Virus record (IMG/VR): IMGVR_UViG_3300020183_000010 | Reading direction: 5' to 3' (one strand) | Source: a virus | DNA: 64,000 bases | Shown here: piece by piece, positions 12,358-50,028 of the stretch | How the letters are laid out: the number at the start of each line of letters is the position of its first letter | Numbering within the stretch: the stretch's first letter is position 1 | Position numbers and translations under genes: made by a program | The notes under the pieces: generated by a model | The model's database searches: none | Told to the model about the DNA's origin: nothing | What the model saw: only the letters and a program-made list of their open reading frames with translations

Positions 12358-15300
12358 TTTCTATAATTCTTTGCGTTGGTACTATTATTTCATCCTTATT
12401 ATCTGTAAATAGTTTTTCGTATCCGCCATCAGGATGTAGATGGTAAATAAAATAATAATCTCTTATATCAAAAACAGAAAATCCCATATTATGTATTACG
12501 TGAGTCTGATCTATCTGTCCGTTGCTTTCTTCATCTCTGTATTCTCCAAAGTTTTCCTCATTATGTGGTAACTTATTATATTTAGAAAAAACAGCTTCTA
12601 GAGCTAAAGAAGATGCAACACCTATACTGTTTCCTGCATGAACAGGAAATCCTTCTTTTTCGTCTCTTACTATTCCGCAAAGATATCCTGGATTATCTTT
12701 AGTGTTTAATATATGGATCATCTCCGAATCGAAATAATCAATATTAAATAAATAATCATCCTCTACAAAGAAATAGTAGTCAAATTCTTTTCTATATTTT
12801 TCGTAAACTGAAGAGAATGCACCATAACTCATTCCAATATTTTTTCTTAGCATTATTTCAGTGGTTGCATTTTGAATCCTGTCTGGAATAATCTCTTTTG
12901 CTTTTTTTATTAGTTCTATATAAGGTACCGTATTATCCATATTTATTGAGAAAATAATATGGTCGATGTTATGTTTATTTTTAGAAAGATATTCTATTTG
13001 TTTTTTAATAAAAAATAGTTTATCTCCTTTATATTCGTCCATCATAATTCTTCTCTCTCCGAAGTAGTTGTGTATCATCATACAGGATTTATATTTTTTA
13101 TTTTGTATAAATCCGATTCCCCCGAAGTTTGATTCTTCATCTATAAAATCGATCTTATTGCCTTTCATTTCATTCCATAGCTTGTCAACTCTACAGTTTG
13201 CGTTTCTGTGATATTCTGTGTCTTTAGTATCGTGAAATCCTATCCATCCTCCATCTTTTACAAATTCCTTATACATGTGGTAATCCTTCTTAACGCCTTC
13301 ATAGGTATGATCCCCGTCTATAAATAAAAAATCTAGAAGGTCCCCATCTAATATCGATTTAACATTTTCTTTTATGTTTTCATCATGAGAACTCCCGTGA
13401 ATTGTAGTAACATTATTTCCTAGGGATTTCAGGTAGAAATCTCTTTCGTTTACGTTATAAGTATTAACGCCATATGGTCCGTGTGGAAGATCAACAGATA
13501 TTCTTTTTCCATTCTCCGATAATTTACTCCAGATCGCAAATGTACCTCCTTGATCTGTTCCAATCTCCATAAAATTTTTGACTCCTAATGTTTTAAAGAA
13601 TTTAGCTGCTTCGTATATCTCTTTATGGTTTTGTACCATCCCTAGTGAGTATGATTCCCTAACAGCTGCATCAATATCGATGTTTTCATTATCCTTCTCT
13701 AGATATTCCTTAATTTTTTCTATAACATAGCTAGATGATATAGATTTAGTGCATTCAAATTGTCTATCCGTACCTTTTAGATCTGGACACCAATTCCAGT
13801 CACCGGCATCTAATCTTTCTCTATTAAAGCAACTGTTACATACATTTGAATTGAATATTCTAATTACGTTATCACCAGAAAATTCAGTGGTCGGATTGCT
13901 GAATCCTGATATAACAACAGTTGGTACATCCAATGACCACGAAAGCCAGCTTAAACCGGATCCTATACCTATGAACATCTCGCAGTTTTTTAAATAAGTT
14001 ATTGCCCTATCTAATGTTTTTTCTCCTTCCACGTATATTACACCTTCCGGATTTTTGTTCCCCATGTATCCATTTTCTTCTAAGCTAAGTAAAACTACTT
14101 TATTACCTGATTCATTAAGCCATTTAACAAGATCATTCCATCCTTCAGGATTATTCCAATATTTAGCTTGTGCTGTGGAGTGTACTGCTATACAAACATA
14201 TTTCTCTTCTATTGGTCTATCTGTTTCTTTAACTACTATATCAGCTCTTAGATCCGTATGAGGAAGTCCTAGTATATCAGTAGTTGTTGCCTGCATCGGA
14301 ATGTTTTTAAAATCCCTAGGATGACAGTCTTTATTAAATTCATTACCATTGTAAAACCATCCTATTCTATAAATAGCATACAGGTTATTTACTATTTGAC
14401 CAGGAGTAACGAATCTTATTTCTGGATAGTTTTTTTCGAATAGTTCATTTTTAAATGTGCTAACTATAACTTCACATCCATGTTTTTTTCTGAATTTTTC
14501 TATATGTGGAAACCAAGCAATAGAATCTCCTAGTGACGAGGACTCGAGAGATATTAATACTCTCTTCTCTTTTAGATCAATACTCTCCTCATACGTCTCC
14601 CCTGTTGATTTATCAATTATTTTTATTAGCCAATCCTTATAATATTTTATTGAGCACCTTGCCCATGTATTATTTTCTAACTCGCACGAATAATAAACAT
14701 TATTGTTAGATTTGTCTATAAATAAAACATCAAAGATTCTACCCTCAGCATTTTTTATTTCTATAAATGCACCGTCGATAAAATTAATATTAAAAGTAGG
14801 CCTGGCTGATTGTTTGTTAAGATTTAGAATAAGATCCTTATTTCTTATTATTATTGATGCCTTTTTAGTTTTTTTATCGTATTTAAATATCTGATTGTAT
14901 TTAGGGATCATTACTACAACCCCCCTATCCAGTTCAGAATCACTTATAGGATAAAAATTCATAGGATATGCTCCAACGGAGAAATCGAAAGATGAATCAC
15001 CTTTTATTATTTTTCCTTCCAAAGGCTCTTCGTTTCCTATAGCACATATATAATTTTTTCCGTCGTTAAGTTCTGTTCCTAAATACAGGTAGCTATTTTT
15101 TCCGTTCTTAGTTTTTATTTGTGGATAAGTTGGAAGTGTTATAGAGTTAAGTATATTCTTTTTAGAAATGTCGTGAGACATCCTCGTGTACATTTTTAAT
15201 CCTCCCTCATCAAAGCATTCATATAGGAAATCCTCCAATATAACAATACCTGGATATTTAAAATAGCTTTGTTTTGAATTTATTGGTTCGATTACTCTTA

Positions 15301-16999
15301 AGATGTCATCACTTAAACCAGAAAAGAATGCGGAGTTTATAGATTTTTCCTGATTCCATTTGTATGCAACTATTGAATTTTCGTTCAATAATTTTGAATG
15401 CTCTAAGAGTGTGTTTTCGTCGTCTATAACGTAATCATAGTTAACAAAATGTGTTTTATTAAATCCACACGATTTAGCTACTCTAGCACCATTTAAAATT
15501 AGTCTAAGAGCAGCGTATCCGTGATTAAAATCGAAAGAATAAGAAACCTCAAAATCAGGATATCTTAAATAGTGAACAGGAACTGTGTTCGATAAACTAC
15601 CATACTCTTCATGTGTAACTATAGGATTGTCGGTCTCGCATATAAAGTAATCGCATATTTTTAATATGTCTTCTGGTATTGAGATATGTGATGATATTAT
15701 TGTGAAATATCCCTGTCTTTTTAATGCTAATAAGCTTCTTTTTAGTGTTGATATCTTATCTGGTGTATCTGCGTGTGATAATATAACTGCTGCATCTTCC
15801 TTGTCATATTTTTCGAGTTGTAAATCACTAACACTTAATAAAGCTTTGTATCCTTGCTTTCCTATATTTTCCCATGAATAATTTTTTATTATTTCTTTAG
15901 CCTTTTCTTCTGCAGATATTTTTTTAGACTCGTAATTAAAATAACAATCCCTTAAAACTTCTATTAGATTGTCATAATCAGGTTCTGCATAAAGTCCTGG
16001 TGTACGTCCAGCAAATCCCAAGTCTGCTCCTATCGAAGCTGGTAATTCTTCCTTTATTCTAACTGGAGATCCTTTACCACTTGCAAACTCTAACTGAGCT
16101 CCCCAGTTAGAGTATATTGTAGGAGTACCCGCTGCCATTGTCTCTATTAGAGGTATGTTCCATCCTTCGCTTCTTGCGCAGGTAACAAGTACATTTCCTT
16201 TCTTTATATAAGAAATATACTCATCCCTAGATACAAAATGCTTTACCTTTATTCTTGGGTCATTAAATCCATAGAATGATAGTCTTTCTTCTGTGCTATT
16301 CATTCCGTCTACCGAATATGGGTTGTCTGCACTTAGTATAAGATCTATTGGTTCATTATTAGGAAAAGCTTTAATAAATGAATCTATTATTTCGGGGACA
16401 GATTTTCTATAATCCCATCTTCCAAAGAAAATAAATTTAAATCTATTGTTTCTATATTCTTCTGGTTCGTTTCTCTCTAATCCATCAAAGAATTCCTTAT
16501 TTACTCCTTCGTTTACTACAAATATCCTATGATTGGGATATCCTTGTTTCATTGCCATTTCTCTGTGCCATTCAGTAACGACCCATAGATAGTCAAATTT
16601 TAGTAACTGATTAAAGAAATTTTCAGGTAGCTCTGTACTTTCCCATACTGTATATGCTATCTTTATCTTTGAATTGTATTCTTCGTAAAAATAATGATGA
16701 TCCATATCCATTAGAACTATATCAACATCTGGGTTAAAATCGTTATTTATTTTTTTCCATTTGATGTTCGGAAATGAATGCGATATAGGATAATCTGAAG
16801 TTCCTCCGTCGGGATTAGTTAGAGTTATTTTGTCTATTATATTGGTATCCCTTTCGTCTAGATATTCTGGATTAGAATCCCACGTAAAATTCCGTACCCT
16901 TAAATCTACGTGATTTGAAAGTTCCCTAAAAAATTCTCTTGCGTGAGATGAGTATCCTGTTTTACCTAAATAACAAGTGTGTGCTCTTACTTTTAACAT
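12326..16999 (-). CDS. Multidomain glycosyltransferase: GT4-like, unknown GT-A-like, TibC/Aah-type heptosyltransferase, SAM methyltransferase, GT2-like
   Basis: GT4: GRWDYRKS, RSEGWNIPLIETMAAGTP. TibC-like: SSSLGDSIAWFP and CNSC...WNWCP...RQFEC. MTase: EIGTDQGG, FIDGDHTYEGVKKD, GGWIGFHD. C-terminal RKNIGMSYGA, FFVEDDY. Confidence 0.85.
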   Translation of the reverse strand: MLKVRAHTCYLGKTGYSSHAREFFRELSNHVDLRVRNFTWDSNPEYLDERDTNIIDKITLTNPDGGTSDYPISHSFPNIKWKKINNDFNPDVDIVLMDMDHHYFYEEYNSKIKIAYTVWESTELPENFFNQLLKFDYLWVVTEWHREMAMKQGYPNHRIFVVNEGVNKEFFDGLERNEPEEYRNNRFKFIFFGRWDYRKSVPEIIDSFIKAFPNNEPIDLILSADNPYSVDGMNSTEERLSFYGFNDPRIKVKHFVSRDEYISYIKKGNVLVTCARSEGWNIPLIETMAAGTPTIYSNWGAQLEFASGKGSPVRIKEELPASIGADLGFAGRTPGLYAEPDYDNLIEVLRDCYFNYESKKISAEEKAKEIIKNYSWENIGKQGYKALLSVSDLQLEKYDKEDAAVILSHADTPDKISTLKRSLLALKRQGYFTIISSHISIPEDILKICDYFICETDNPIVTHEEYGSLSNTVPVHYLRYPDFEVSYSFDFNHGYAALRLILNGARVAKSCGFNKTHFVNYDYVIDDENTLLEHSKLLNENSIVAYKWNQEKSINSAFFSGLSDDILRVIEPINSKQSYFKYPGIVILEDFLYECFDEGGLKMYTRMSHDISKKNILNSITLPTYPQIKTKNGKNSYLYLGTELNDGKNYICAIGNEEPLEGKIIKGDSSFDFSVGAYPMNFYPISDSELDRGVVVMIPKYNQIFKYDKKTKKASIIIRNKDLILNLNKQSARPTFNINFIDGAFIEIKNAEGRIFDVLFIDKSNNNVYYSCELENNTWARCSIKYYKDWLIKIIDKSTGETYEESIDLKEKRVLISLESSSLGDSIAWFPHIEKFRKKHGCEVIVSTFKNELFEKNYPEIRFVTPGQIVNNLYAIYRIGWFYNGNEFNKDCHPRDFKNIPMQATTTDILGLPHTDLRADIVVKETDRPIEEKYVCIAVHSTAQAKYWNNPEGWNDLVKWLNESGNKVVLLSLEENGYMGNKNPEGVIYVEGEKTLDRAITYLKNCEMFIGIGSGLSWLSWSLDVPTVVISGFSNPTTEFSGDNVIRIFNSNVCNSCFNRERLDAGDWNWCPDLKGTDRQFECTKSISSSYVIEKIKEYLEKDNENIDIDAAVRESYSLGMVQNHKEIYEAAKFFKTLGVKNFMEIGTDQGGTFAIWSKLSENGKRISVDLPHGPYGVNTYNVNERDFYLKSLGNNVTTIHGSSHDENIKENVKSILDGDLLDFLFIDGDHTYEGVKKDYHMYKEFVKDGGWIGFHDTKDTEYHRNANCRVDKLWNEMKGNKIDFIDEESNFGGIGFIQNKKYKSCMMIHNYFGERRIMMDEYKGDKLFFIKKQIEYLSKNKHNIDHIIFSINMDNTVPYIELIKKAKEIIPDRIQNATTEIMLRKNIGMSYGAFSSVYEKYRKEFDYYFFVEDDYLFNIDYFDSEMIHILNTKDNPGYLCGIVRDEKEGFPVHAGNSIGVASSLALEAVFSKYNKLPHNEENFGEYRDEESNGQIDQTHVIHNMGFSVFDIRDYYFIYHLHPDGGYEKLFTDNKDEIIVPTQRIIENEKRKEYTVI

Positions 17000-17061: not shown

Positions 17062-20000
17062 TTAATCAGGAACCCCGTTTGATAATGCTAAAAATTCAAG
17101 CTTACTTACCCAGTTTATATTAGTTGCAGCTACACCTGTTACTCTAAGCAATATATTAGCCCCACTTTGACCAAATGAAACTGTAGGAGTACCTGTCATA
17201 CCCTCTTGTGCAACCAAAGAAACTGTAACACCTTGCTGAGTAAGAGCCCCTGCGTTATTAGTAAAAACTGCTGATATTTCCCATCCCCCTCCAGTACTTG
17301 TTACTGAAGTAGGTGTTGCAACTACTATACCTTTAACGTAATAAGTGTATGCTGTATTTGTAGCTAGAGTTATAACTGTAGTAATTGTAGCATTAGTTGT
17401 TTGTGTTATTGTTGTCCCTCCTATAGTAGTATAAGTTCCATAGGTATTGTATCCAGTACCACCTATTACCAAAGCGCTATTTACTGAATCTACTTGGACA
17501 TATGATTCTCCTTGTATTAAACCAGAAGTACCAGTAGCAGTTAGTACGTAGTTATTTATGTTATTGTTAATAGATAATATTCCTGATGTTCCTGAAGATC
17601 CACTAGTTCCTGAAGTTCCATCCTTACCGTCATAAACCCATGATATTGTATATGTTTTACCCGAAGTAAGAGTACCATTAGCAACAACGTTAGTAACTCT
17701 TAAGTTATAATATGTTGTATTATTTACAGCAGATCCAGCTGAAAAGATACCTATAACATTATTACTTCCTAATTCTGTTATTTGTAAATAAACAACATTA
17801 CCGTTACTTATAATAGTTGATAATGCAGAAAGCCACGGTGCATAGTTAGTACCTGCATAGTCTGTTACGCTAATATTCATATTGGCGATAGCAGATATAG
17901 TGGAGCTTGCAGCGTTAAAGTCGTTTGCTGTAGGGTCACTAGGGTAAGCTGGTGAAGTTGTATAGAGCCATCTACCACTATTTGATCCGTCGTTTCCTGC
18001 AGTTCCACTAGTTCCAGAAGATCCAGATGTTCCAGAGCTTCCACTAGTTCCTGAAGTTCCCCTAGTTCCTGAAGATCCCGAGGTTCCCGAAGATCCACTG
18101 GTTCCTCTAGTTCCAGAAGATCCAGATGTTCCAGAGCTTCCACTAGTTCCTGATGATCCAGATGTTCCAGAGCTTCCCCTAGTTCCTGATGATCCAGATG
18201 TTCCAGAGCTTCCACTAGTTCCTGAAGTTCCCCTAGTTCCTGAAGTTCCAGAAGATCCACTAGTTCCTGAAGATCCACTAGTTCCAGAAGTACCATGTGT
18301 TCCTATTCCGCTAGTACCTGAAGTTCCCCCTGTTCCTTGATCCCCTGTTTTACTGAATACTAATACACAAGGCTCTGCATTAGAAGGTATAGTACCCGAT
18401 AGATACGTTACACCAAAAGTAAACCATCCAGTATTGTTAGTTACTGATGTTATTGCGAATGATGTAAATGTGGTATCTGTATTATTATTAGAATTAACTA
18501 GTAAATATCCTTTAATTGAATTAGTACCAGTTCCCCAACTTGTGAACGTTGCCGAGAAATCAACCGAGTTTATGTCTAATATGTCTATGTATATAGAAGT
18601 AATAGAACCAGGAGTTGCAGAATTGTATCTAAATAATCCAGTACCTGGATCTGCACTTAGAGTATTTGTGTCGAAATTATATCTTAATCCAGCACCATCT
18701 CCTTGTAATCCGCTGGTACCCGATGTTCCGTGAGTACCTATTCCGCTTGTTCCAGAAGATCCTGATGTCCCTCTAGTACCTGACGTACCTGATGTTCCAG
18801 AAGTACCAGCATCACCTTTATCACCAGTTCTATAGAATGTAATAACACATTCTTCTAAGTTTGTTGGAATTGTACCACTTATACCAATAACTGTAAGACT
18901 AAACCAACCAATATTTTGAACTAAAGATAATAATTGGAATTGATTGAATGTTGTATCAGAATTTAAATTTGATTTAATCTCAATAATACCCTTAACTGTA
19001 CTAGTACTATTATCCCAAGAACCAATTGATGTTACAAAACCTTGACCATTAACATCTGATGAACTAATAGCAATTGTTGCTGTAGTACCAACACTTGTTG
19101 TATCATATCTAAAATTACCTTGACCTGGATCAACAGAAACCCCTGTTGATGAATCAAAATTAAACCTAATACCTGCAGATTCTCCTTGTGCACCTCTAGT
19201 TCCACTTGTACCGGATGATCCCGAAGTTCCTCTTGTACCAGATGATCCAGATGTGCCGGATGATCCAGATGTACCTGAAGATCCACTAGTTCCTGATGTT
19301 CCACTGGTTCCTCTAGTTCCAGAAGATCCTGATGTTCCAGAAGATCCACTAGTTCCAGAAGATCCACTAGTTCCTGAAGATCCTGACGTTCCTGAGCTTC
19401 CACTAGTTCCAGAAGATCCTGATGTTCCAGAAGATCCTGATGTTCCACTAGTTCCTGACGTTCCACTAGTTCCTGAGGATCCACTAGTTCCAGAAGACCC
19501 TGACGTTCCACTAGTTCCAGAAGATCCACTAGTTCCAGAAGATCCACTAGTTCCTGATGTTCCATTTCCACTAGTTCCTGATGTTCCATTTCCACTAGTT
19601 CCTGATGTTCCAGAAGATCCACTAGTTCCTGATGTTCCAGAAGATCCTGATGTTCCAGAAGATCCACTAGTTCCAGAAGATCCACTAGTTCCTGATGTTC
19701 CATTTCCACTAGTTCCTGATGTTCCAGAAGATCCACTAGTTCCTGAAGATCCTGACGTTCCTGAGCTTCCACTAGTTCCAGAAGATCCTGATGTTCCACT
19801 AGTTCCTGAAGATCCACTAGTTCCAGAAGATCCACTAGTTCCCGAGGTTCCATTTCCGCTAGTTCCTGAAGATCCTGACGTTCCACTAGTTCCTGAAGAT
19901 CCACTAGTTCCTGAAGATCCTGACGTTCCACTAGTTCCTGAAGATCCTGACGTTCCACTAGTTCCAGAAGATCCACTAGTTCCAGAAGATCCACTAGTTC

Positions 20001-21333
20001 CTGATGTTCCACTAGTTCCTGATGTTCCAGAAGATCCACTAGTTCCTGATGTTCCATTTCCACTAGTTCCTGAAGATCCACTAGTTCCTGAGGTTCCATT
20101 TCCACTAGTTCCTGAAGATCCACTAGTTCCTGAAGATCCACTAGTTCCTGAAGATCCACTAGTTCCAGAGGTTCCATTTCCACTAGTTCCTGATGTTCCA
20201 GAAGATCCACTAGTTCCTGATGTTCCACTAGTTCCTGATGTTCCACTAGTTCCTGATGTTCCACTAGATCCACTAGTTCCCGAAGATCCACTAGTTCCTG
20301 ATGTTCCACTAGATCCACTAGTTCCTGATGTTCCACTAGATCCACTAGTTCCTGATGTTCCACTAGATCCACTAGTTCCCGAGGTCCCACTAGATCCGCT
20401 AGTTCCTGAAGTACCATCTATTCCACTAGTTCCTGAAGTACCACTAGTCCCCGCTCCTCCACTACCTGAGCCCTGAGCTGGATAAAGATATGATCCTGTA
20501 TTATCGCTAATTTTTATGTATACCGGAATTGGATTGGTTAAAGGTTTTATGTTAGTTACATAGGAAGGTGCCTGTGTGTTGTCAAAATATAAAACATCTC
20601 CAATGCTACCAGGAAGAACAAAAGGAGTAGTAACTATTCTTCCAAAGGGCCTGACGTTTATATTGCCTATCTCAGGCTCATCTATTGATGTAATAACACC
20701 AAATGCTTTTTCAACCTCTGTAGTTATAGAAGTGTTTACTATATTAAAAACCCCGTAAGGATCTAGATAAACTACCTGTCCTATGTTGTATGTAGAATAA
20801 ACCGTATTAGGTGAGTAGATATTAGCATAGCTAGATTTTACTATATTTCTGTATTGGAACCTAGCAAAAGCATCATCTATCCAATAACCGTTATCGTCCA
20901 AGTTTGAGGATAAAGCAGTAGCGATAAGAGCAGGTATCGGTGCTCCATCTTCAGATATCGGTATTGTTATACCATTTATTCCCTCTGTTGGGTAATTATT
21001 ACCTGAAACCGTATAATCGCTTATAAGATTATATAGATCAATATCTTTTAGTGTTACAGAAGCTTCTAAATTATTATTTACAGTAATTGAGGTAATTAGA
21101 AAAGCATTTCCGTTAGGCTGTAAAAGCCACATTCCCTCTTGTAAATCGTTTGCATCGAATAAAAAGTCTGGCTCCTGTGACGTTGGGGTAGCAATTATAT
21201 CCAATATACAACTAAAGGAATATGGATAATTGTTCCATACACTCGAGGGATTATTATAATAACTATCAACAACAACTGACCCAGTCCTCACTCTGGCAAT
21301 CATTGTTATTGGTAATAATGGGATTTGAGCCAT
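17062..21333 (-). CDS. Fibre-like virion protein with long Gly-Thr/Ser-Ser repeat tracts
   Basis: About 400 aa of GTS/GSS triplets plus shorter tracts separating repeated globular modules (RFNFD..DPG.G.FRY twice). Confidence 0.8.
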   Translation of the reverse strand: MAQIPLLPITMIARVRTGSVVVDSYYNNPSSVWNNYPYSFSCILDIIATPTSQEPDFLFDANDLQEGMWLLQPNGNAFLITSITVNNNLEASVTLKDIDLYNLISDYTVSGNNYPTEGINGITIPISEDGAPIPALIATALSSNLDDNGYWIDDAFARFQYRNIVKSSYANIYSPNTVYSTYNIGQVVYLDPYGVFNIVNTSITTEVEKAFGVITSIDEPEIGNINVRPFGRIVTTPFVLPGSIGDVLYFDNTQAPSYVTNIKPLTNPIPVYIKISDNTGSYLYPAQGSGSGGAGTSGTSGTSGIDGTSGTSGSSGTSGTSGSSGTSGTSGSSGTSGTSGSSGTSGTSGSSGTSGSSGTSGTSGTSGTSGTSGTSGSSGTSGTSGNGTSGTSGSSGTSGSSGTSGSSGTSGNGTSGTSGSSGTSGNGTSGTSGSSGTSGTSGTSGTSGSSGTSGSSGTSGTSGSSGTSGTSGSSGTSGSSGTSGTSGSSGTSGNGTSGTSGSSGTSGSSGTSGTSGSSGTSGSSGTSGSSGTSGSSGTSGTSGNGTSGTSGSSGTSGSSGTSGSSGTSGTSGSSGTSGTSGNGTSGTSGNGTSGTSGSSGTSGSSGTSGTSGSSGTSGSSGTSGTSGTSGTSGSSGTSGSSGTSGSSGTSGSSGTSGSSGTSGSSGTSGSSGTRGTSGTSGTSGSSGTSGSSGTSGSSGTRGTSGSSGTSGTRGAQGESAGIRFNFDSSTGVSVDPGQGNFRYDTTSVGTTATIAISSSDVNGQGFVTSIGSWDNSTSTVKGIIEIKSNLNSDTTFNQFQLLSLVQNIGWFSLTVIGISGTIPTNLEECVITFYRTGDKGDAGTSGTSGTSGTRGTSGSSGTSGIGTHGTSGTSGLQGDGAGLRYNFDTNTLSADPGTGLFRYNSATPGSITSIYIDILDINSVDFSATFTSWGTGTNSIKGYLLVNSNNNTDTTFTSFAITSVTNNTGWFTFGVTYLSGTIPSNAEPCVLVFSKTGDQGTGGTSGTSGIGTHGTSGTSGSSGTSGSSGTSGTRGTSGTSGSSGTSGSSGTRGSSGTSGSSGTSGSSGTSGSSGTRGTSGSSGTSGSSGTRGTSGTSGSSGTSGSSGTSGTAGNDGSNSGRWLYTTSPAYPSDPTANDFNAASSTISAIANMNISVTDYAGTNYAPWLSALSTIISNGNVVYLQITELGSNNVIGIFSAGSAVNNTTYYNLRVTNVVANGTLTSGKTYTISWVYDGKDGTSGTSGSSGTSGILSINNNINNYVLTATGTSGLIQGESYVQVDSVNSALVIGGTGYNTYGTYTTIGGTTITQTTNATITTVITLATNTAYTYYVKGIVVATPTSVTSTGGGWEISAVFTNNAGALTQQGVTVSLVAQEGMTGTPTVSFGQSGANILLRVTGVAATNINWVSKLEFLALSNGVPD
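19195..20455 (-). repeat. Degenerate 9-nt tandem repeat array (GTS/GSS codons); further blocks at about 17995-18330 and 18715-18810
   Basis: Units such as ccactagtt, cctgatgtt, ccagaagat repeated on the + strand. Confidence 0.95.
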
Positions 21334-21349
21334 CTATTTTTTTTAATTT

Positions 21350-24022
<2,673 letters not shown>

Positions 24023-29085: not shown

Positions 29086-30753
29086 TTAGATTTCCGCTGC
29101 TGCTTCCCCGCCTGCTGCTGCGTCTCCACCTGCTGCTGCGTCTCCGCCTGCTGCTGCGTCTCCACCTGCTGCTGCTGCGTCTCCTCCGGTAGCTCCGGTA
29201 GCTCCAGCTTTTCCTTCCTCTTCCGCTTTTTTCACATAGGACTTATTTAACTGTATATCCTCATAAGATAGATCTAGCCATCTTTCTATCATAAAGTCCT
29301 GGTCGAAGAACTGAACCTCTTCCTCATTTACTGTTTCTTTGACTTCCCCTAGTGCAGTAATAAAATCAATTCTTTTTATTAACTGCTCTATCTCTCTTGA
29401 TTCACCAAATAAATTATCGCTTTCAAACTTAACACCTATTTGACTTCTAAATTCAGAATCATTCTTAAGGTCTGGAAAATCTAGACACATTTGAATCCAA
29501 AGAGGCTTAACTATTATTTCTTGGAATATTGATCTTAGCCTAGTTATAAACTTAGCAAATCTTACCTCGTCTCTTTCCGCTCCGTCAGCACCTGTTTTAA
29601 AAACGTTATTTGATCCAACACCAAATCTAGAAGAAAATCTGTTGTAAGGTATTTTAGAATCTTGTCTTAACTTGTTGTAAAAATAAACAACTGAATCCAT
29701 AATGTTTAAATTCGGACCTTGTGCGTTAAGTGTTTCGATTTTAACAGATTCACCTCCCTGCTGCGGGAATAAATAATTTTTATAAAATTGTATATCCGGC
29801 CTACCATTTATTGATAATTCACCGGAAGTTGTATCTAATTTAATATCTTCTTTATACACAGACATTAATTCCCCTAAGGTTTCTTTAGCTTTTTGTGGTG
29901 CTTTGCTACCAATAGGAACAGTCATTTTAATTCTGTATTGTGCATTCATGACATTCCATATTATTCTAGAATGCTCCATAATTTTTAGTAGGTTATAAGA
30001 TCTTATTAATCTTTCTGTATAAGAAACCCTAGATACGGTGTTTGCTTTAGCATATGATATGTAGATAACCTGTGCATCTAAAAGTTTTCTTTGTCTAACA
30101 GTTTCTCCGTAATACTGCCACCAAATTGTTTCTCTAGTTCCGCCCGGTTTCTTTTCGACCGCTGGGGTTAAACTCACTGGGTCTAATTCCTTAAATCCTA
30201 TTATTTCTTTCCCGTCGTTTGAATAGATTATTTCAAAAGCTAAAAATCCCTCTACTACTAATTGTCTAAAGTATTGCCAAGCAGTTAAGCCATTAGCAAA
30301 ATTGTGTAAAACATATAGCTTTCTGAAATTTTTTCTCATAGCTTTTATGACGTCATCTTTGAGATCCATGCTCATTAGAGCTGGATGACAAAAGAAATTC
30401 TTTTCGTCATAAACTATAGCTTCGTCACATATTGTATCTAAAATATATTCGATCTCAGCGTTTAAAGCAAAGGTTCTAAGAAAATCTCTCTTGAATGGGT
30501 AATCCTTATCGAAATATGCTATATATTTTCTATTAGATGTATCCTGTGCTGCTATACTGTATATAAAATCCTCGTCCGAATCTGTAAATCCGAACCTTTC
30601 TCTCATATTAGCTTCAGATACACCTATTGCCATAGAGTCTTGGATAACCATATCCTTATACTCCATACCAAAAGATCCAAGACCACTAATAGTTTTTAAT
30701 ATCCTTGAGATATTGGGATTTATTTTTCCTAAGTTGTCTAAAAATCCAGCCAT
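29086..30753 (-). CDS. Portal protein (T4 gp20-like), copy 2
   Basis: EIEYILDTICDEAIVYD, YNLLKIMEHSRIIW, SKIPYNRF, ERDEVRFAKFITRLRSIF. Confidence 0.88.
   Translation of the reverse strand: MAGFLDNLGKINPNISRILKTISGLGSFGMEYKDMVIQDSMAIGVSEANMRERFGFTDSDEDFIYSIAAQDTSNRKYIAYFDKDYPFKRDFLRTFALNAEIEYILDTICDEAIVYDEKNFFCHPALMSMDLKDDVIKAMRKNFRKLYVLHNFANGLTAWQYFRQLVVEGFLAFEIIYSNDGKEIIGFKELDPVSLTPAVEKKPGGTRETIWWQYYGETVRQRKLLDAQVIYISYAKANTVSRVSYTERLIRSYNLLKIMEHSRIIWNVMNAQYRIKMTVPIGSKAPQKAKETLGELMSVYKEDIKLDTTSGELSINGRPDIQFYKNYLFPQQGGESVKIETLNAQGPNLNIMDSVVYFYNKLRQDSKIPYNRFSSRFGVGSNNVFKTGADGAERDEVRFAKFITRLRSIFQEIIVKPLWIQMCLDFPDLKNDSEFRSQIGVKFESDNLFGESREIEQLIKRIDFITALGEVKETVNEEEVQFFDQDFMIERWLDLSYEDIQLNKSYVKKAEEEGKAGATGATGGDAAAAGGDAAAGGDAAAGGDAAAGGEAAAEI
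29095..29205 (-). repeat. About 18-nt tandem repeats encoding the GATGATGG(DAAAGG)n portal tail
   Basis: cctgctgctgcgtctcc[ag] repeated about four times. Confidence 0.85.
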
Positions 30754-30759
30754 TTTATT

Positions 30760-32379
30760 TTATAGTGTAAATTCGTCTCCTCCTGTAGCTCCTTCAGCTC
30801 CTGTAGCTCCCTCTGCTCCGGTAGCACCTGCTTCAGCTTCAGCTGCTTTTTTCTTTTCCTCAGCTGCTTTTTCTTTAAATTTCCTGTTAGTTGTTAAATC
30901 TTGTCCTTTAACACCTAACCATCTATCTACTAAGAAATCCATACTGAAGTATTTTTTCCCTTGAGAGTTCATTAGAGCAGATATTTTAATTATTTGATCC
31001 TTTCTAGCTGTTAGAACCTCCATTTCTTTTGCTTCTCTGAACATGTTCTCTTTAACATAATCCAAACCAAACTCTGACTTTATTAAATAATCTTTTTTAA
31101 GATGTGGAAAATCCAAACAGAATTGAACCCATAAAGGCTTCATTAGTATCTCTTGATATATTGATCTTAACCTGTTTATAAATTTACCGAACCTAACCTC
31201 CTCTTGATCTAATCCCTCTGCGGTAAAAGTAATTGTTCCTTCGGATCCTGACTCCTCTCTACCGAATCTAGTAGCAGGTATTTTTGAATCCATTCTAAGT
31301 TTATTTGCAAAGTACTTAAGAACTGTTGTATCAGAGAATGCTGTAGCATCTCCTCCACCTGGTAAAGGTTGTATATCTGGGGTTCCGTTAGGAGAGGAAG
31401 GCATTAAATAGTTCTTAAAAAATTGAATCTTTGGTCTTCCGTCTACACTTAATTCCCCACTATCTGTATTAAGTCTTATATCCTCTTTATATATGGACAT
31501 TAGTTCTCCTAATGTCTGTTTAGCTTTTTGTGGGGATCTCGTACCAATAGGAACCGTCATTGCCATCCTGTATGATGAGTTCATTACGTTCCATATAATT
31601 CTGGTGTGCTCCATTATTCTAAGTAGATTAAATGATCTAATCATTCTTTCACAATAACTAACTCTGGATGATGTTCCTCCACCTTTAGCATAACTTATAT
31701 AAATTATCTGCGAATCATATAATTTTCTAGTTAATGATGGATTATCCGGATATTGTATCCATATATCGGTAAAACTCCCGTCAGGTTGTGATTCTACTGT
31801 TGGTATTAGTGACCAGGGATCTAATTCTTTAAACCCTACAATATTTTTACCTTTCTTGTCAAATACTATCTCAAAAGCTATATTTCCGTCTACTAGAAAT
31901 TTTCTGAATAAATGCCAAGCTGATATATCTTGATTAAATCCGAAAAGATTGTAGATCTCCTTATATCTTTTTTGGACTTTCTCATATGTTTCATCGTCGA
32001 CATCGTCATGCTGCATAAAAGAAAAATAAGCCCAGAAATTCTTTTCGTCATAAACTATTGACTCGTCGCATATAGTATCTAAAATAAATTCTATTTCTGG
32101 GTTTTGTGAAAATCCTTGGAGATAATGTCTTTTATTTTTATAATCCTTATCGAAATAAGCTATATACTGTTTAGTGGTTGTATCTGCTCTTCTTAAACCA
32201 AATAAGAAAGATTCGTCTTTTATACCACCTTTTTGTAGGAACTGAGCTTCTGTTATACCTACCGCTTGTGAGTTTTTTATGACAAGATCCTCGTAGGCCA
32301 TACCAAAACTGCCCACTTTCTTTATATTATCTATAATAGAACTAAAGAATGATTTTTTTTCGTCAGTAAATCCAGCCAT
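30760..32379 (-). CDS. Portal protein (T4 gp20-like), copy 1
   Basis: PEIEFILDTICDESIVYD, FNLLRIMEHTRIIW, SKIPATRF, EEVRFGKFINRLRSIY. Confidence 0.88.
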   Translation of the reverse strand: MAGFTDEKKSFFSSIIDNIKKVGSFGMAYEDLVIKNSQAVGITEAQFLQKGGIKDESFLFGLRRADTTTKQYIAYFDKDYKNKRHYLQGFSQNPEIEFILDTICDESIVYDEKNFWAYFSFMQHDDVDDETYEKVQKRYKEIYNLFGFNQDISAWHLFRKFLVDGNIAFEIVFDKKGKNIVGFKELDPWSLIPTVESQPDGSFTDIWIQYPDNPSLTRKLYDSQIIYISYAKGGGTSSRVSYCERMIRSFNLLRIMEHTRIIWNVMNSSYRMAMTVPIGTRSPQKAKQTLGELMSIYKEDIRLNTDSGELSVDGRPKIQFFKNYLMPSSPNGTPDIQPLPGGGDATAFSDTTVLKYFANKLRMDSKIPATRFGREESGSEGTITFTAEGLDQEEVRFGKFINRLRSIYQEILMKPLWVQFCLDFPHLKKDYLIKSEFGLDYVKENMFREAKEMEVLTARKDQIIKISALMNSQGKKYFSMDFLVDRWLGVKGQDLTTNRKFKEKAAEEKKKAAEAEAGATGAEGATGAEGATGGDEFTL

Positions 32380-32975
32380 TAGACTTTTGAATTTTTATTA
32401 TATATCTCATTTAACTGGGTCCCTTCAATTGACCTAGTATCCAGATATATTATTCTAGTCCAATCTTCGAAAGGAATTTCCACAACATCACGAACTTTTT
32501 TTAAATCCCATGATCTATATGCGTGTTTATATGGTATTCCCTTCAGTATGATATCCATTGTTTGATAATCTGTTTTAAAAGGAATCTGATCCCTGCCCTC
32601 ACCTCTTTCTTGCCTTTGTATATTTTTTTCTAACTGATCCTGAAATACACTTTGTACCCTCTCAAAAAATGATAATCTAAATACTGGGGGAATAAGTATT
32701 AAATCTAATCCGTTAAAAAGATTTTTCTTTTCGTAATTATCATATCCAGTGAAAAAAATTACGGGTCTTTTGTTTATGAATTTCTTACCATCTTCTAATT
32801 TGTCGTTGTACGCAAAAGAATAAACCTTTCCTTGTAAAAAGTTTAATGGGTTAAATTGTGAGTTTTTATTTACATAATTTTTTACCCAGTGCATAAATGC
32901 CTCTTCTGGTAAAGAAGTTAGCCCAGAAACAGAAAATTTATATTCCTCGAATTTTTTTCTAAATGGCTGTATCAT
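32379..32975 (-). CDS. DNA end protector (T4 gp2-like)
   Basis: GKVYSFAY...RPVIFF...GLDLILIPPVFR...EIPFEDW. Confidence 0.7.
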   Translation of the reverse strand: MIQPFRKKFEEYKFSVSGLTSLPEEAFMHWVKNYVNKNSQFNPLNFLQGKVYSFAYNDKLEDGKKFINKRPVIFFTGYDNYEKKNLFNGLDLILIPPVFRLSFFERVQSVFQDQLEKNIQRQERGEGRDQIPFKTDYQTMDIILKGIPYKHAYRSWDLKKVRDVVEIPFEDWTRIIYLDTRSIEGTQLNEIYNKNSKV

Positions 32976-33457
32976 CTCATTATAAAGCTTTCGTTGATAG
33001 CACCGAATTTATATCCTCTAGATTCAGCAAATCTAGTTGCTGCTTCAAACTTAGCTCTATTTGTTATCCACGTCTTAAGTTTTTCGTTATAAGATCTTAT
33101 CTTTTTTTCTGTTAGATTTCCGACGGGCTCTTTGGGTCTTTTATGAAGTGCATACTGATCTTCTGGTTTTATTTCTATTAACCAGTTTTCTAAAATTTCG
33201 CCCTTCTGTACTTGTATGTAGTAATCTACAAAATATTTGTGCTCTTTTTTGTCTATAGGACTCCAATAGGGAATTCCTGTTGGTTCTGAACTCCATTTTG
33301 TTATGTTGGGATTAATATCACAATATTGACAAAATTTCCTTTCCCAGGAGCTTCTATATATTATATTATATATGTCCCCAATATACTTTTCCGGATTAAC
33401 TGGGGAATACTTACCAGATTTCCAGTTCCCATTGGGCTTTAGTTTTTTTATGTCCAC
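32972..33457 (-). CDS. Head completion nuclease (T4 gp4-like, TnsA fold)
   Basis: NPEKYIGD, IYRSSWERKF, WSSE, YFVDY, LIEIKP, NRAKFEAA. Confidence 0.9.
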   Translation of the reverse strand: MDIKKLKPNGNWKSGKYSPVNPEKYIGDIYNIIYRSSWERKFCQYCDINPNITKWSSEPTGIPYWSPIDKKEHKYFVDYYIQVQKGEILENWLIEIKPEDQYALHKRPKEPVGNLTEKKIRSYNEKLKTWITNRAKFEAATRFAESRGYKFGAINESFIMR

Positions 33458-33459
33458 AA

Positions 33460-33816
33460 TTATACATTATAATTGGAATTCTCCTCTCTTACTATTCTAG
33501 AAAAAGGAATAGTCTTAGGGGATTTTGGTGGATGTATTTTTTTCCATCCTTTTTTCATTCCATTGTGTGCTATCTGGGATATAAAAGCAAAAGGATTATC
33601 AGACTTAGCTGGATCATATCGATTCCAATATTTAACTAAGTCTTCCAGTCCTGAAGATATGCAATCTTCTCTGTCTTCATTATCTCGGTAGGAATGTGTC
33701 TTGGACATACCGTTTACTATGAGAGTAAACATCTTAACGGTCTCATCTGTTAATTGACCTTTTTCTTTGCTTTCTAGAAGAGCTCTTTTTAGCTCTTTGT
33801 TTTTTACGTATATCAT
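33460..33816 (-). CDS. Late sigma factor (T4 gp55-like)
   Basis: YVKNKEL, YDPAKSDNPFAFISQIAHN. Confidence 0.8.
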   Translation of the reverse strand: MIYVKNKELKRALLESKEKGQLTDETVKMFTLIVNGMSKTHSYRDNEDREDCISSGLEDLVKYWNRYDPAKSDNPFAFISQIAHNGMKKGWKKIHPPKSPKTIPFSRIVREENSNYNV

Positions 33817-36443: not shown

Positions 36444-36935
36444 TCATTGAATACTCCCGCCTAAAATAACATCCACGTTTACTCTAACCGAATGCGGATT
36501 ATAAAGAATCATCCCTCCATTGCTAAAAAATGGTGATTCTATGTCGCTACCGTTCGGATCTAAGTCCCATCCCCTGTTATTCGTATATGGTGATAAATCG
36601 GAAGGATTTCCTGTTAATATAGTAAGATTTGACATAGGAAGGTATGCACCATTGTATATTATGTTTATAAATCTACTAGAAACTGGTAGTGTAGTAGGAT
36701 ATGATGCTTTAATCATTATAAAACAGAGTTCCCCCATTCCCTCAGAGTTTAAAACTAGACTTGAATTTCCGTACACACATCCACTAAAACTTGAGTAATT
36801 TCCAATTTCGATGATTGTATCACAGAGGCTCATCTCTTTAATAACAGTTGTTCCTCTAATAACCTGAAGATTACATCTTTGAAAAATAGCTCCTTCAAAT
36901 TGGATTGGATCACATACTAGGGGTGGTGTAGCCAT
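36444..36935 (-). CDS. Hypothetical structural protein, paralog of 36935..37519
   Basis: Shared FQ.CNL.V, LCD, L..LTG, GWDL and GG...NP motifs. Confidence 0.65.
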   Translation of the reverse strand: MATPPLVCDPIQFEGAIFQRCNLQVIRGTTVIKEMSLCDTIIEIGNYSSFSGCVYGNSSLVLNSEGMGELCFIMIKASYPTTLPVSSRFINIIYNGAYLPMSNLTILTGNPSDLSPYTNNRGWDLDPNGSDIESPFFSNGGMILYNPHSVRVNVDVILGGSIQ

Positions 36936-37519
36936 TAGTTAAAAATAAATATTTCTAGTTCAGCACTTTTTGAATCATTGGGATTGCTGAAAAGTATTCC
37001 CCCAAAAGAAAGATTGGGTGAAGTTATTACTGGGTATGGCTGAGGACTAAAATCTGGGCTAGGTGGGTTATTTGAATAATAGCTAAGATCCCATCCTTGC
37101 CATGGTATTTCTGCCTCAGTTCTTCCGGTTAGCACCATCAAGGTGTGCAAAGGATATATGTTTCCTTTGTATTCCCAGTTTAAATATCTTTCCTCTTCTA
37201 CCCATGATTTTTCATACCTGACTTTAACTACTATCATTTGCACTTCTCCTTGTGCTTGCCCAATTTCAGGAGCGGTTAACGTGTATGTTCCTAATGGACC
37301 TAAAGTTGCAGTTTTTTTACCAGATCCCCCACATCCACCTAATTCTGAGCTTCCTAGCGATTCTAGTTTAAAATCACAGAGGGGGACAGTGGTAAGAATA
37401 TTCGAACCCTCTTTTACGTCTAAATTACAAGACTGGAAATAAACCATCCTATAAACAGCAGGATTGCATTCTAGATATTTTACATACCTTTGATCTGTTG
37501 TATAAACTTTACCAATCAT
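36935..37519 (-). CDS. Hypothetical structural protein, paralog of 36444..36935
   Basis: Same shared motifs as the neighbouring gene. Confidence 0.65.
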   Translation of the reverse strand: MIGKVYTTDQRYVKYLECNPAVYRMVYFQSCNLDVKEGSNILTTVPLCDFKLESLGSSELGGCGGSGKKTATLGPLGTYTLTAPEIGQAQGEVQMIVVKVRYEKSWVEEERYLNWEYKGNIYPLHTLMVLTGRTEAEIPWQGWDLSYYSNNPPSPDFSPQPYPVITSPNLSFGGILFSNPNDSKSAELEIFIFN

Positions 37520-41985: not shown

Positions 41986-43758
41986 CTAATGAAACTTTTT
42001 TCCGTTAGGAATAACAATTAGGGGATTTTTTAACGTATTATTCAGCTGAGTTAGTAATGTAACCATAGATTTCATGTTATCTCCTAGCTCTTTCATAGCT
42101 TTATCTTGCCCCTCACTTTTTTCTTTGTTTTCCGTTTCGTTCTGTTGTGTTCCTTCGGTTTTTACCTCTGAAGATGCCTCCGTTTTTTTGTCTTCTGTTT
42201 TATTCTGGGTAGTAGTTGGTGAAGATGTATTTGTCTCGCTCTTCTTTTCCTCAGTTTTATCAGTAGTCGGAGTATTTACACTAGATAAATTTTGTGTTGT
42301 TGTTTCTTTTATAGGCGTATTAGTGGTAGAAGTTTCAGTTTTTTTATCAGTATTTGTAGAAACTTTCTCATCCAGCTTAGTTTCTTTCTTCTCTGTCTTA
42401 GATTTATTTCCAGTATTTCCCTTTCCTTTTGTGTCGGTAGACTCTTCTTTTGGTTTTGTAAATCCTAGTTCTTCTAGGTTCTTATCTACTGCGGCACTTC
42501 CTGTTGTTATACCTTTTCCTTTTCCTTTATCTTTTTCGTCCCCACCCTCTCCTTCTTTTTTGTCTCCTTCTTTAGCCGGCATTTTTAATCCCAGCATTTC
42601 TAGTATTCCTTTATTTGATTCGCTAAGAGCTGGTGTTGTATCTTTACCTTTTTTACCTTTATTGTCCCCTGTTTTTACATCTTCCGCTTTTCCTTTGGCT
42701 TCATCTTTTTTCTCTTCCGGTTTTTTCTCCTCTAATTTTTGTTCTGCTGTTTTAACTTCAGCCCCTTTAGTCTCTTCTGTCTTTTTAGTCTCTTCTGTCT
42801 TTTTTTCTTCGACTTTTGCTTCTTCTTTTTTTTCCTCTGGCTTAGGAAGATCTCCTGTCTTTTTTTCTTCGACTTTTGCTTCTTCTTTTTTTTCCTCTAT
42901 TTTAGTTTCTTCTGTTTTTGTCTTCGCCTCTTCTTTTTTTGCCTCTTGTGCAGCATCTTTTATTACATCCTCCGCTTTTTTCCCTTCTTTTTTTTCTATT
43001 AGCTTTTTTATGTTATCATCATATGCTTTTGCCATTTTGGTAACACTCTCATTGGTAAATCCTTCTGCTTCTAAAACTTTCGCTAAAGCAGAAATTATAG
43101 CCATATTTTCTGGGGTATATAAAATAGGAGCATATTGGCTAGCAAGTGTGGATTCCTTAACAGTAAAATACTGTAATAATTTAGAAAAATTATCAAGAAG
43201 TGGCTCGAATTTATTTTTTTCGTCCTTTATCTTACTATTAAAATCGCTTTTAACATCTTCATATAAGTCAAAATTCTTTACGTCACTAATACCTAAATTG
43301 TCTACTATATCGGTAACCCTACCGTCTCTAAGTACTAGTGCATTACCTATCTTATTCTCAGCAGCTTCCTTAGACATTTCAAAAATCTCCTTGCCGTCTA
43401 TACTTTCCCCCTTTTCTAATTTCCTTCTTATTTTGTCTTTATTTGATCCTCCGTCTGAATAAGCTTCCGAATAATAGATAAGGCTTGGATCATAAGCAGG
43501 ATCTAATCCTTTTACGTTTTTTTCAAATGAATCGTCGTAAAATTTATTAGCTTCTTTTATAACTTGATCCGCTGATTTTTTTTTCTTTACTAAATCCTCG
43601 TCTATTTCTTTTCCTGTAGCCCTCGCAGTTACCCCGTCACTTTCGATCATTGCTTTTTCCTGTTCCTTGTATTTAGCTCTATCAAAAGCACCTTCGGATG
43701 ATTTAAATACCGGAAATTCGGATCCTGTTCCCTCTTTATTATCTTTTTCTTCTGCCAA
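41986..43758 (-). CDS. Lys/Glu/Thr-rich low-complexity protein at the tape-measure/hub position
   Basis: Follows the gp26/gp51-like genes; internal duplicate EEKKEEAKVEEKKT; TTG start. Confidence 0.5.
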   Translation of the reverse strand: MAEEKDNKEGTGSEFPVFKSSEGAFDRAKYKEQEKAMIESDGVTARATGKEIDEDLVKKKKSADQVIKEANKFYDDSFEKNVKGLDPAYDPSLIYYSEAYSDGGSNKDKIRRKLEKGESIDGKEIFEMSKEAAENKIGNALVLRDGRVTDIVDNLGISDVKNFDLYEDVKSDFNSKIKDEKNKFEPLLDNFSKLLQYFTVKESTLASQYAPILYTPENMAIISALAKVLEAEGFTNESVTKMAKAYDDNIKKLIEKKEGKKAEDVIKDAAQEAKKEEAKTKTEETKIEEKKEEAKVEEKKTGDLPKPEEKKEEAKVEEKKTEETKKTEETKGAEVKTAEQKLEEKKPEEKKDEAKGKAEDVKTGDNKGKKGKDTTPALSESNKGILEMLGLKMPAKEGDKKEGEGGDEKDKGKGKGITTGSAAVDKNLEELGFTKPKEESTDTKGKGNTGNKSKTEKKETKLDEKVSTNTDKKTETSTTNTPIKETTTQNLSSVNTPTTDKTEEKKSETNTSSPTTTQNKTEDKKTEASSEVKTEGTQQNETENKEKSEGQDKAMKELGDNMKSMVTLLTQLNNTLKNPLIVIPNGKKFH

Positions 43759-43780
43759 AATAATTTTTATTTATATACCT

Positions 43781-45349: not shown

Positions 45350-45928
45350 TTAATTGAAAACGTCTTCGAAATAATCCGCTCTGAAAGATAAAGCTATTTT
45401 ATAAGGTGTTGTACCGTTAGTGTAATCAAGATCTAAAGATTTGATCTGGTCAACAGGAAAGCAGTTTAATAATTTAATCCTTCTAAACACGTCTCCTTGC
45501 TTATTAAATATAGAGATAAGTATGTAAGTTCCTCCAGCATAATTGGATTTTATTCCCATAGCACCTGTTAATGGATTATAAACTAAATCCGACCACTGAC
45601 GTAGGGTTTTAAAAACGTAGTTGCTGTTATTGTCGTTAAGGTTTGTTTCAAATTCAATTCTTACCTTAATACCAGTATCATCTACTACACCACCCGCATA
45701 TCTTCTTTTAGTAAATTTATATCTTTGCTCTGCTGGTGCTGGGTTTTTGTCTACTGTTAAACCAGTAACTGATAGAACGTTTTCTACTAGGAGACTACGT
45801 CCTCCGTTTCCTTGTTCTAGAGCAACCCCAGCAGGCGGCTGTATAATAACCTCAAACTGATTAAGATATACTGGTTCGTACAATTGTACTGCTGCTTTTG
45901 CCGATGTAAAATGTGGTAATCCTGCCAT
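45350..45928 (-). CDS. Tail tube protein (gp19-like), copy 2
   Basis: MAGLPHF, EPVYLNQFEV, LRQWSDLVYNPLTG, NCFP; follows the sheath. Confidence 0.85.
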   Translation of the reverse strand: MAGLPHFTSAKAAVQLYEPVYLNQFEVIIQPPAGVALEQGNGGRSLLVENVLSVTGLTVDKNPAPAEQRYKFTKRRYAGGVVDDTGIKVRIEFETNLNDNNSNYVFKTLRQWSDLVYNPLTGAMGIKSNYAGGTYILISIFNKQGDVFRRIKLLNCFPVDQIKSLDLDYTNGTTPYKIALSFRADYFEDVFN

Positions 45929-45938
45929 TTTTTATTTT

Positions 45939-46511
45939 TTATATAAACACGTCTTCGAAATAATCAACTGCCCATTGCAGAGTCAATTTATATATGGATG
46001 TTTGAGTGTAGTTCAATCCCATTTCGTTAATAGCAGTCATAGGGAAGCAATCTCTAAGATTTATTTTTCTAAAAATATCTCCTTGCTTATTGAATACATT
46101 AACTAGAATATTTCCAGTGTAATCTTTTTTAAGCCCCATAGCTCCAGTTAAAGGATTATAAATTAAATCCGACCACTGGCGAAGAGTTTTAAAAACATAC
46201 ATAGAGTTGTTTTCGTTTAGGTTTATCTCAAATTCCATATCAACATCTAAACCTGTTCTTGATGGAGCAGCACCAGAGTAATATCTCTTAGCAAATTTAT
46301 ATTGCTGAGTTATTTCTCCTGGGTTCTGATCAACTTGTAATCCAGATATTCTAGTTACTTGTTCTAGCAATATATTAGAACTCCCTGGATTTCCAGCCTG
46401 AACTGGAATAGCAGCCGGAGGAGTAATAATAACCTCAAACTGGTTGAGAAAAACAGGTTCGAACTTGTTAACCGAAGCCTTAGAACTTGTATAATGTGGT
46501 AATCCTGCCAT
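45939..46511 (-). CDS. Tail tube protein (gp19-like), copy 1
   Basis: MAGLPHY, EPVFLNQFEV, LRQWSDLIYNPLTG, DCFP. Confidence 0.85.
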   Translation of the reverse strand: MAGLPHYTSSKASVNKFEPVFLNQFEVIITPPAAIPVQAGNPGSSNILLEQVTRISGLQVDQNPGEITQQYKFAKRYYSGAAPSRTGLDVDMEFEINLNENNSMYVFKTLRQWSDLIYNPLTGAMGLKKDYTGNILVNVFNKQGDIFRKINLRDCFPMTAINEMGLNYTQTSIYKLTLQWAVDYFEDVFI

Positions 46512-49958: not shown

Positions 49959-50028
49959 TTTTAATTTTTATTTATATTCTAAGAAGTTATCCTTTGACTT
50001 CTTTTTCTATGTATATATCATTCTTCCT

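Follow-up and report, generated by a model that had tools for sequence, protein, structure and literature searches.

Two diverged portal genes kept in tandem by a clade of uncultured jumbo phages: a candidate hetero-oligomeric portal

No machine of tailed phages and herpesviruses is more conserved than the portal, which is taken to be a homo-dodecamer. Its 12-fold symmetry is the basis of current ideas on the symmetry mismatches with the capsid vertex (5-fold), the terminase motor (pentameric), and the tail (6-fold). In the neck of phage T4, 12 copies each of the portal protein gp20 and of gp13 meet six copies of gp14, i.e., C12 is broken to C6 (PMC12929629), and the structures PDB 9LU6/9LU7 were solved in C6. 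A comparative overview of jumbo phages treats the portal as a single gp20 orthologue. Here, we describe a 64,000-nucleotide (nt) stretch of DNA from the IMG/VR virus record IMGVR_UViG_3300020183_000010 (the whole stretch is called the window), in which two full-length portal genes of the gp20 type, named A and B, lie next to each other. T4 and every phage record checked have a single portal gene and a homo-dodecameric portal, whereas two conserved paralogs are present here. A full-text literature search of incomplete coverage for two, duplicated, or paralogous phage portal genes gave nothing relevant, and a stable two-gene state of this known family has apparently not been described before.

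The closest relatives of A and B (35–48% identity) are the portals of huge phages (LR756500-LR756504, LR745206, and Lak phages) and of the lineages around the proteins P0123 and P0124, which also belong to huge or jumbo genomes. Unlike the phage described here, these records have one portal and one tail-tube gene each, and their portals fall outside the clade formed by A and B. Duplicated structural genes with both products in the particle, at distinct positions, are found in T4, namely gp23/gp24 (hexamer vs. vertex capsid protein) and gp19/gp3 (tube vs. terminator), gp3 having the gp19 fold (PMC12929629). They differ from A/B in that no portal is involved and in that gp3 and gp19 are only ~22% identical and form separate rings. 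The tube protein pb6 of phage T5 is a fused duplication of the tube domain and forms pseudo-hexameric trimers. Thermosome alpha/beta rings and the fungal V-ATPase proteolipid ring are hetero-oligomers that arose from homomeric ancestors by duplication. Their logic is the one proposed for A and B: duplication, symmetric divergence, complementary retention of ancestral states, and two indispensable copies. These systems are cellular and unrelated in sequence, and their co-assembly was shown experimentally, whereas co-assembly of A and B is a proposal.

In this clade, the portal gene has been duplicated, both copies are retained under equal constraint and linked in an operon, and their divergence follows the domains of the protein. 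Our hypothesis, to which we assign a probability of roughly 0.5, is that the portal is a hetero-oligomer of A and B, probably with six copies of each.

Two full-length portal genes of the gp20 type

30760..32379, minus strand: portal paralog A, 539 amino acids (aa), full-length T4 gp20-type (open reading frame, ORF; PF07230, E = 5.4e-61; PHROG 213)
30754..30759, minus strand: 6-nt spacer AATAAA, separating the stop codon of A (TAA) from the start codon of B (ATG) (from the sequence)
29086..30753, minus strand: portal paralog B, 555 aa, full-length T4 gp20-type (ORF; PF07230, E = 7e-61; PHROG 213)

An initial annotation, made from the sequence of the window, had described two adjacent, intact, and collinear gp20-like genes of 539 and 555 aa with common motifs such as the start MAGF. 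ORF calls, BLASTP, PF07230, and PHROG 213 confirmed the genes at precisely the coordinates given there, and the motifs are present in both translations. A and B are collinear with 49% identity across 519 aa (BLASTP, E = 0). Both cover positions 9 to 429/431 of the PF07230 Portal_T4 profile (433 positions), and with scores of 207 bits (A) and 206.7 bits (B) against a cut-off of 22.9 both belong to the family. With two full-length genes, the window departs from the state of one portal gene per genome; a search of the window for a third portal copy was negative.

AF2 models were generated from alignments of 86 (A) and 88 (B) sequences and reached a mean predicted local distance difference test (pLDDT) score of 81.3 and 77.1, respectively, with the secondary-structure elements in identical order. 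The top Foldseek matches were chains of T4 gp20, both for A (E 1e-20, target template-modelling score, TMt, up to 0.70) and for B (E 3e-20, TMt up to 0.71). Chains from 9MKB, 6UZC, 9LU7, and 3JA7 ranked first (E 1e-20 to 1e-16, TMt 0.54–0.71), and other phage portals came next. [quoted passage not shown] In every genome compared, both copies are full-length and retain each of these domains. Family and fold are thus those of T4 gp20 (PF07230; PDB 3JA7, 6UZC, 9MKB, 9LU6/9LU7), and the neighbourhood is T4-like as well, with gp55-, gp4-, and gp2-like genes upstream and sheath, tube, and large terminase (TerL) genes nearby. In contrast to gp20, to which they are only 16–21% identical in the structural alignment, A and B have long, low-complexity acidic C-terminal tails.

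Retention, origin, and selection of the pair

The initial annotation had asked whether both portal clades are retained in relatives; A and B were found together in all relatives with room for the pair. With A as query, 80 IMG/VR loci were returned, the A orthologue being 97% down to 55% identical. Two of these loci stop inside A and were left out of the pair count; in the 78 loci with downstream room, all around the window's lineage, A is followed by a B orthologue in the same orientation (78/78). The identity of B tracks that of A, from 97/97 down to 69/67 and 55/54%, while A versus B stays constant at 47–52%. A second scan from the deep-branching A-type protein P0109 gave 80 further loci, two of them truncated and lacking room, and the pair was present in 78/78 of the others. 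Across the two deep sub-lineages, orthologue identity falls to 53–55%. The spacer between the genes consists, without exception, of a TAA stop followed by 2–11 nt and an ATG. Because the gap in the window measures 6 nt, A and B are likely co-transcribed.

Searches of whole records revealed exactly two portal genes in each of ten long or complete in-group records, four of which have a CheckV completeness of 92–100% at 250–373 kb, one with direct terminal repeats. The complete genomes (G011-G014) carry exactly two portal genes each. No loss of either copy was seen among ~150 loci.

A maximum-likelihood tree was calculated from 104 sequences: the A and B proteins of nine loci, further proteins of the A type, and, from a library clustered at 50%, 75 full-length representatives. 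The A clade and the B clade (Shimodaira-Hasegawa-like approximate likelihood ratio test, SH-aLRT, 99 and 98) are sisters within a joint clade (99), and the stems that lead from the duplication to the two clades are symmetric (0.13 and 0.14). The nearest outgroup lineages are those around P0123 and P0124. Their portals are equally distant from A and B (48/48 or 44/44%), and they have one portal within 5 kb on either side; whole outgroup records of 134–254 kb contain one portal each (5/5). As A and B form sister clades and the equidistant outgroups are single-copy, the tree supports a single tandem duplication within the lineage, at the base of the clade, rather than the acquisition of a foreign portal.

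Among 50,697 GenBank phage records, none matched the window at the nucleotide level. By protein, the closest records are uncultured huge phages: LR756500 (43–46%), LR756501-4 and LR745206 (34–38%), and Lak phages (36%). Phage records were matched in 1,105 cases with A as query and in 2,082 cases with B, and the matched GenBank phage records showed no second full-length portal. A second place of portal matching was present only in LR756501 and LR756503, the latter with the same coordinates as the former. In LR756501, it is a 58-residue fragment corresponding to the C-terminal end of the portal profile (LR756501.1 15166-15351, L003). This fragment lies ~57 kb away from the full portal of the 735-kb huge phage.

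One distant T4-type portal outside the window (P0251, 1,059 aa) is interrupted after the channel-loop motif LPGG by an insert of ~470 aa, which starts with Cys and looks like an intein inside a portal gene. P0251 was considered as an A-B fusion and rejected, being a single portal split by this insert.

Selection was estimated by the Nei-Gojobori method for 43 non-identical genomes. The median ratio of nonsynonymous to synonymous rates (omega), taken from 46 pairs with unsaturated synonymous divergence (dS), was 0.018 for A and 0.032 for B. Across all 903 pairs, the nonsynonymous divergence (dN) of B on that of A gave a slope of 1.03 (r 0.985). Purifying selection on the two copies is strong and equal. 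Relaxed selection on one copy, which the initial annotation had named as a refutation of its reading, was looked for and is seen neither in omega, nor in the dN slope, nor in the stem branches.

These results bear directly on the explanation that the second gene has no functional meaning, be it a neutral duplicate, a recent redundant one, or an artefact of assembly. Tandem duplications arise easily, and one contig has a nonsense codon in A. However, an identity of 49% implies an old duplication, the pair recurs in ~150 independent metagenomic loci from two deep sub-lineages with orthologue identities of 53–55%, omega is 0.02–0.03 in both copies, and neither has been seen to be lost. A meaningless duplicate is highly improbable, and this explanation is effectively refuted.

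Divergence of A and B and the composition of the portal ring

For the comparison of domains, 54 A, 43 B, and 19 single-copy outgroup sequences were aligned, and the domains were set from HMMER alignments to gp20 and the published gp20 limits (PMC4493910). The identities between A and B are as follows.

Stem a5: 83%
Stem a7: 82%
Outer clip, including the helix aligned to the gp17-docking residues N291-K296 of gp20: 72%
Wing, second part: 60%
Wing, first part: 50%
N-terminal arm: 45%
Tunnel loop: 32%
Crown: 31%
Inner clip loop and channel loop, 31315..31404, minus strand (A codons 326-355, = gp20 337-363): 13%, the most diverged segment

The stem helices and the clip-tip helix aligned to N291-K296 are conserved in A and B as in gp20. 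The segment of 13% identity is conserved inside each paralog (0.83 and 0.89), on par with the rest of the protein. Here, A has an insertion of two residues and Pro338 where B and T4 carry Thr, and the channel loop of B resembles that of the outgroups, with Thr kept at the position of gp20 T349 and SPP1 T319. Mutation of T319 in SPP1 impairs ATPase stimulation and packaging (PMC4493910). Fixed differences between A and B were found at 27 sites, with the outgroup state in A at seven and in B at three; 17 could not be polarised. Ancestral states are retained in a complementary way across the two paralogs.

The derived inner clip and channel loop of A, with its Pro at T349/T319 and its 2-residue insertion, may make A less competent in translocation. 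This would suit an explanation in which a single copy works as the portal, while its paralog, with the fold retained, acts as an assembly chaperone or nucleator, an internal ring stacked on the portal, or a decoy for portal-sensing host defences; duplicated virion genes do specialise, as gp24 from gp23 and gp3 from gp19 in T4. We nevertheless consider such co-option improbable. The asymmetric divergence or change of rate that usually goes with it is lacking (stems 0.13/0.14, slope 1.03), the exposed clip-tip helix is nearly unchanged in both copies (72% over the outer clip), derived states occur on both sides (B at seven sites, A at three), and both copies keep full length and four domains in every genome.

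A conserved scaffold combined with alternative channel loops fits two subunit types within one ring. One mixed ring would be the most economical arrangement. The parts that form the ring and dock to partners are alike, and the channel loops, the crown, and the N-terminal arm come in two versions. We propose a single tandem duplication of the portal gene at the origin of an uncultured jumbo-phage clade (complete genomes ~250–373 kb), after which both products remained true portal subunits, made together from one transcript. Most likely, A and B would join in one dodecameric ring at the packaging vertex, probably in alternation (6+6), and the alternation would lower the symmetry from C12 to C6. 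Common to both subunits would be the elements responsible for ring cohesion and for the docking of terminase and neck (stem helices, outer clip helix). Two fixed versions would exist of the inner clip, of the channel and tunnel loops lining the DNA channel, of the crown, and of the N-terminal arm. Judging from the break of C12 to C6 at the neck of T4, alternate portal positions would already be non-equivalent there, which could give the duplicates something to specialise on. Co-assembly of A and B, its stoichiometry, and the arrangement in the ring are what we infer from these patterns.

The N-terminal arm differs between A and B yet is conserved within each paralog. In T4 gp20, the N-terminal 73 residues are dispensable for ring formation and required for head assembly. 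The two versions of the arm could therefore also mean two initiation contexts, as would be expected if A and B formed separate homo-dodecamers (A12 and B12) for different particles or stages (capsid classes, initiation conditions) or for packaging versus ejection vertices. Each could form a working ring, since both have the complete portal fold and the clip helix that docks terminase and neck. Such a division is unlikely, however, in view of the spacing of 2–11 nt in one operon at ~150 loci, which offers no obvious separate regulation, the equal rates and symmetric divergence, the C-terminal tips that are identical between A and B in some genomes, and the one large terminase gene seen in the window. 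Assembly of T4-like proheads starts on a single portal, and we know of no tailed phage with two portal vertices; we count both against separate rings. The initial annotation had offered a hetero-oligomeric portal or two specialised vertices. Retention, phylogeny, and equal selection agree with the former, and nothing specific was found for the latter. Symmetric divergence, equal rates, the conserved clip tip, and the missing separate regulation weigh against separate rings and against co-option, though not decisively.

Both proteins end in low-complexity tails of variable length, rich in E, G, A, T, and P. The last 6–10 residues are identical between A and B in 14/52 genomes of the deep lineage and in 2/43 of the window's lineage, compared with 7% in a cross-genome control and an overall A-B identity of ~49%. 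The genomes with identical tips include L021/L066, L129, L136, L140, L160, L164, L167, and L170. Identical tips indicate recurrent gene conversion or shared selection, and the two tails therefore probably serve a common partner. A hydrophobic tip EF[TK]L on one paralog alone, which would have put six tethered peptides on each ring, was considered and rejected: in the window's lineage, A carries it in most cases, in the deeper lineage B or both paralogs do, and similar tips occur in single-copy outgroups.

An all-against-all comparison of the window ORFs gave three tandem paralog pairs: the portals, two tube-like genes, and an unannotated pair. The tube-like genes are as follows.

45939..46511, minus strand: tail-tube paralog T1, 190 aa (PHROG 32623 and 3629, tail tube)
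45350..45928, minus strand: tail-tube paralog T2, 192 aa (PHROG 32623 and 3629, tail tube)

T1 and T2 are 58% identical, and both start with MAGLPH. The pair was found in 10/10 long in-group records, and a single tube gene, 40–47% identical to T1 and T2, in 5/5 outgroup records, so that the doubling of the portal and that of the tube share one distribution across records. T1 and T2 could form a two-subunit tube, or be a tube protein together with a terminator or initiator. We treat the shared distribution as suggestive only.

Several points weigh against a hetero-oligomeric portal. We know of no heteromeric portal in tailed phages or herpesviruses, and the prior for a heteromer is therefore low. 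Equal constraint and tight linkage would also fit two essential, separate homo-dodecamers. The divergence pattern of the domains is in part general rate heterogeneity, since a slow stem and a fast channel loop are also seen in single-copy relatives. The doubling of the tube amounts effectively to a single co-occurring evolutionary event, and by analogy with T4 gp3 the second tube paralog could be a terminator. No natural A-B fusion was found among longer homologous proteins, in a search that was weak. In one 5-kb IMG/VR contig (L052:1542-3170), codon 328 of A is an in-frame TAG where the closest relatives have TCR. The rest of this A gene is intact, and the TAG, the only defect seen among the loci, may reflect an error in sequencing, a mutation of recent date, or a defective variant. 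A complex prediction for A residues 75-505 with B residues 80-512, run with separate alignments and without controls, gave no verdict (best score 0.24, mark 0.32) and speaks neither for nor against contact between A and B.

The hetero-oligomer can be put in a stricter form, which we regard as tentative and somewhat short of an even chance. In this form, an obligate A6B6 portal would have a C6 channel with alternating sets of channel, tunnel, and crown loops, and the symmetry break at the neck, which in T4 is a matter of conformation, would be genetically hard-wired, possibly together with a two-subunit tail tube. If true, an obligate A6B6 ring would be the first heteromeric portal in any tailed virus; separate rings, if true, would make a two-portal phage that is equally unprecedented. 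A clade that has long kept two equally constrained portal genes would be a natural experiment on the symmetry mismatches of the portal vertex. A mixed ring would show which surfaces must match (stem, outer clip) and which can be split between two subunits (channel-lining loops, crown, N-terminal arm). It would also provide a two-gene system that is directly testable by co-expression and cryo-EM. Annotation pipelines and portal phylogenies built on the assumption of a single portal per genome would count these phages twice or pair their portals wrongly.

Gene neighbourhood and other features of the window

The genes directly upstream of A are as follows.

32379..32975, minus strand: gp2-like DNA end protector, its stop overlapping the start of A (PHROG 429, E = 8e-11; TAATG overlap)
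32972..33457, minus strand: gp4-like head-completion (head closure) nuclease (PHROG 218, E = 1e-45; PF08722)
33460..33816, minus strand: gp55-like late sigma factor (PHROG 234, E = 3e-16; Sigma70_r2)

Downstream of the pair lie a DNA ligase and a clamp loader gene. The tail sheath gene, the two tube-like genes, and the large terminase gene, the only one seen in the window, are 13–20 kb away from the portal pair, and a neck-like gene is also present in the window. A single late promoter above the pair, proposed in the initial annotation at 32399, was not supported: the exact T4 late-promoter consensus TATAAATA is absent at this position, and the window shows no enrichment of the motif (16 occurrences vs. 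15.1 expected). Scans of the window for sigma-70-like promoters and for terminators stayed at background level, and no terminator-like site was found between A and B on the coding strand. With the start of A overlapping the gp2-like stop and no such terminator-like site, the pair looks like the end of a gp55-like/gp4-like/gp2-like/A/B string rather than a unit with its own promoter.

The third tandem paralog pair (36935-37519 and 36444-36935, minus strand) encodes proteins of 194 and 163 aa that are 28% identical, with overlapping stop and start. It sits between the gp55-like block and unannotated genes, and it had no match in PHROGs or Pfam and no usable lead in Atlas.

Nearly all genes of the window are on the minus strand, and G+C is 30–35% except for a richer stretch at 18–24 kb. 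No tRNA genes were found in the window. The rise in G+C to 0.40–0.42 at 18–24 kb is accounted for by the genes of two large collagen-repeat, tail-fibre-like proteins of 1,423 and 890 aa (17062-21333 and 21350-24022, minus strand); the repeats also give rise, as a by-product, to the long ORFs seen there in other frames. A block of sugar-modification genes (10718-16999, minus strand) encodes an acetyltransferase, an aminotransferase, and a 1,557-aa glycosyltransferase and methyltransferase-like protein, and a sialyltransferase-like gene lies at 4169-4960.

The gene at 41986-43758 (minus strand) encodes a 590-aa protein with a long K/E/T-rich low-complexity middle, which explains a dip in AT skew at 42–44 kb and a spurious 462-aa antisense ORF. 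This protein may be a scaffold, core, or internal head protein. An exact TATAAATA is present at 43768-43775, 10 nt upstream of the start of the 590-aa gene, and another at 49969-49976, just upstream of the sheath gene.

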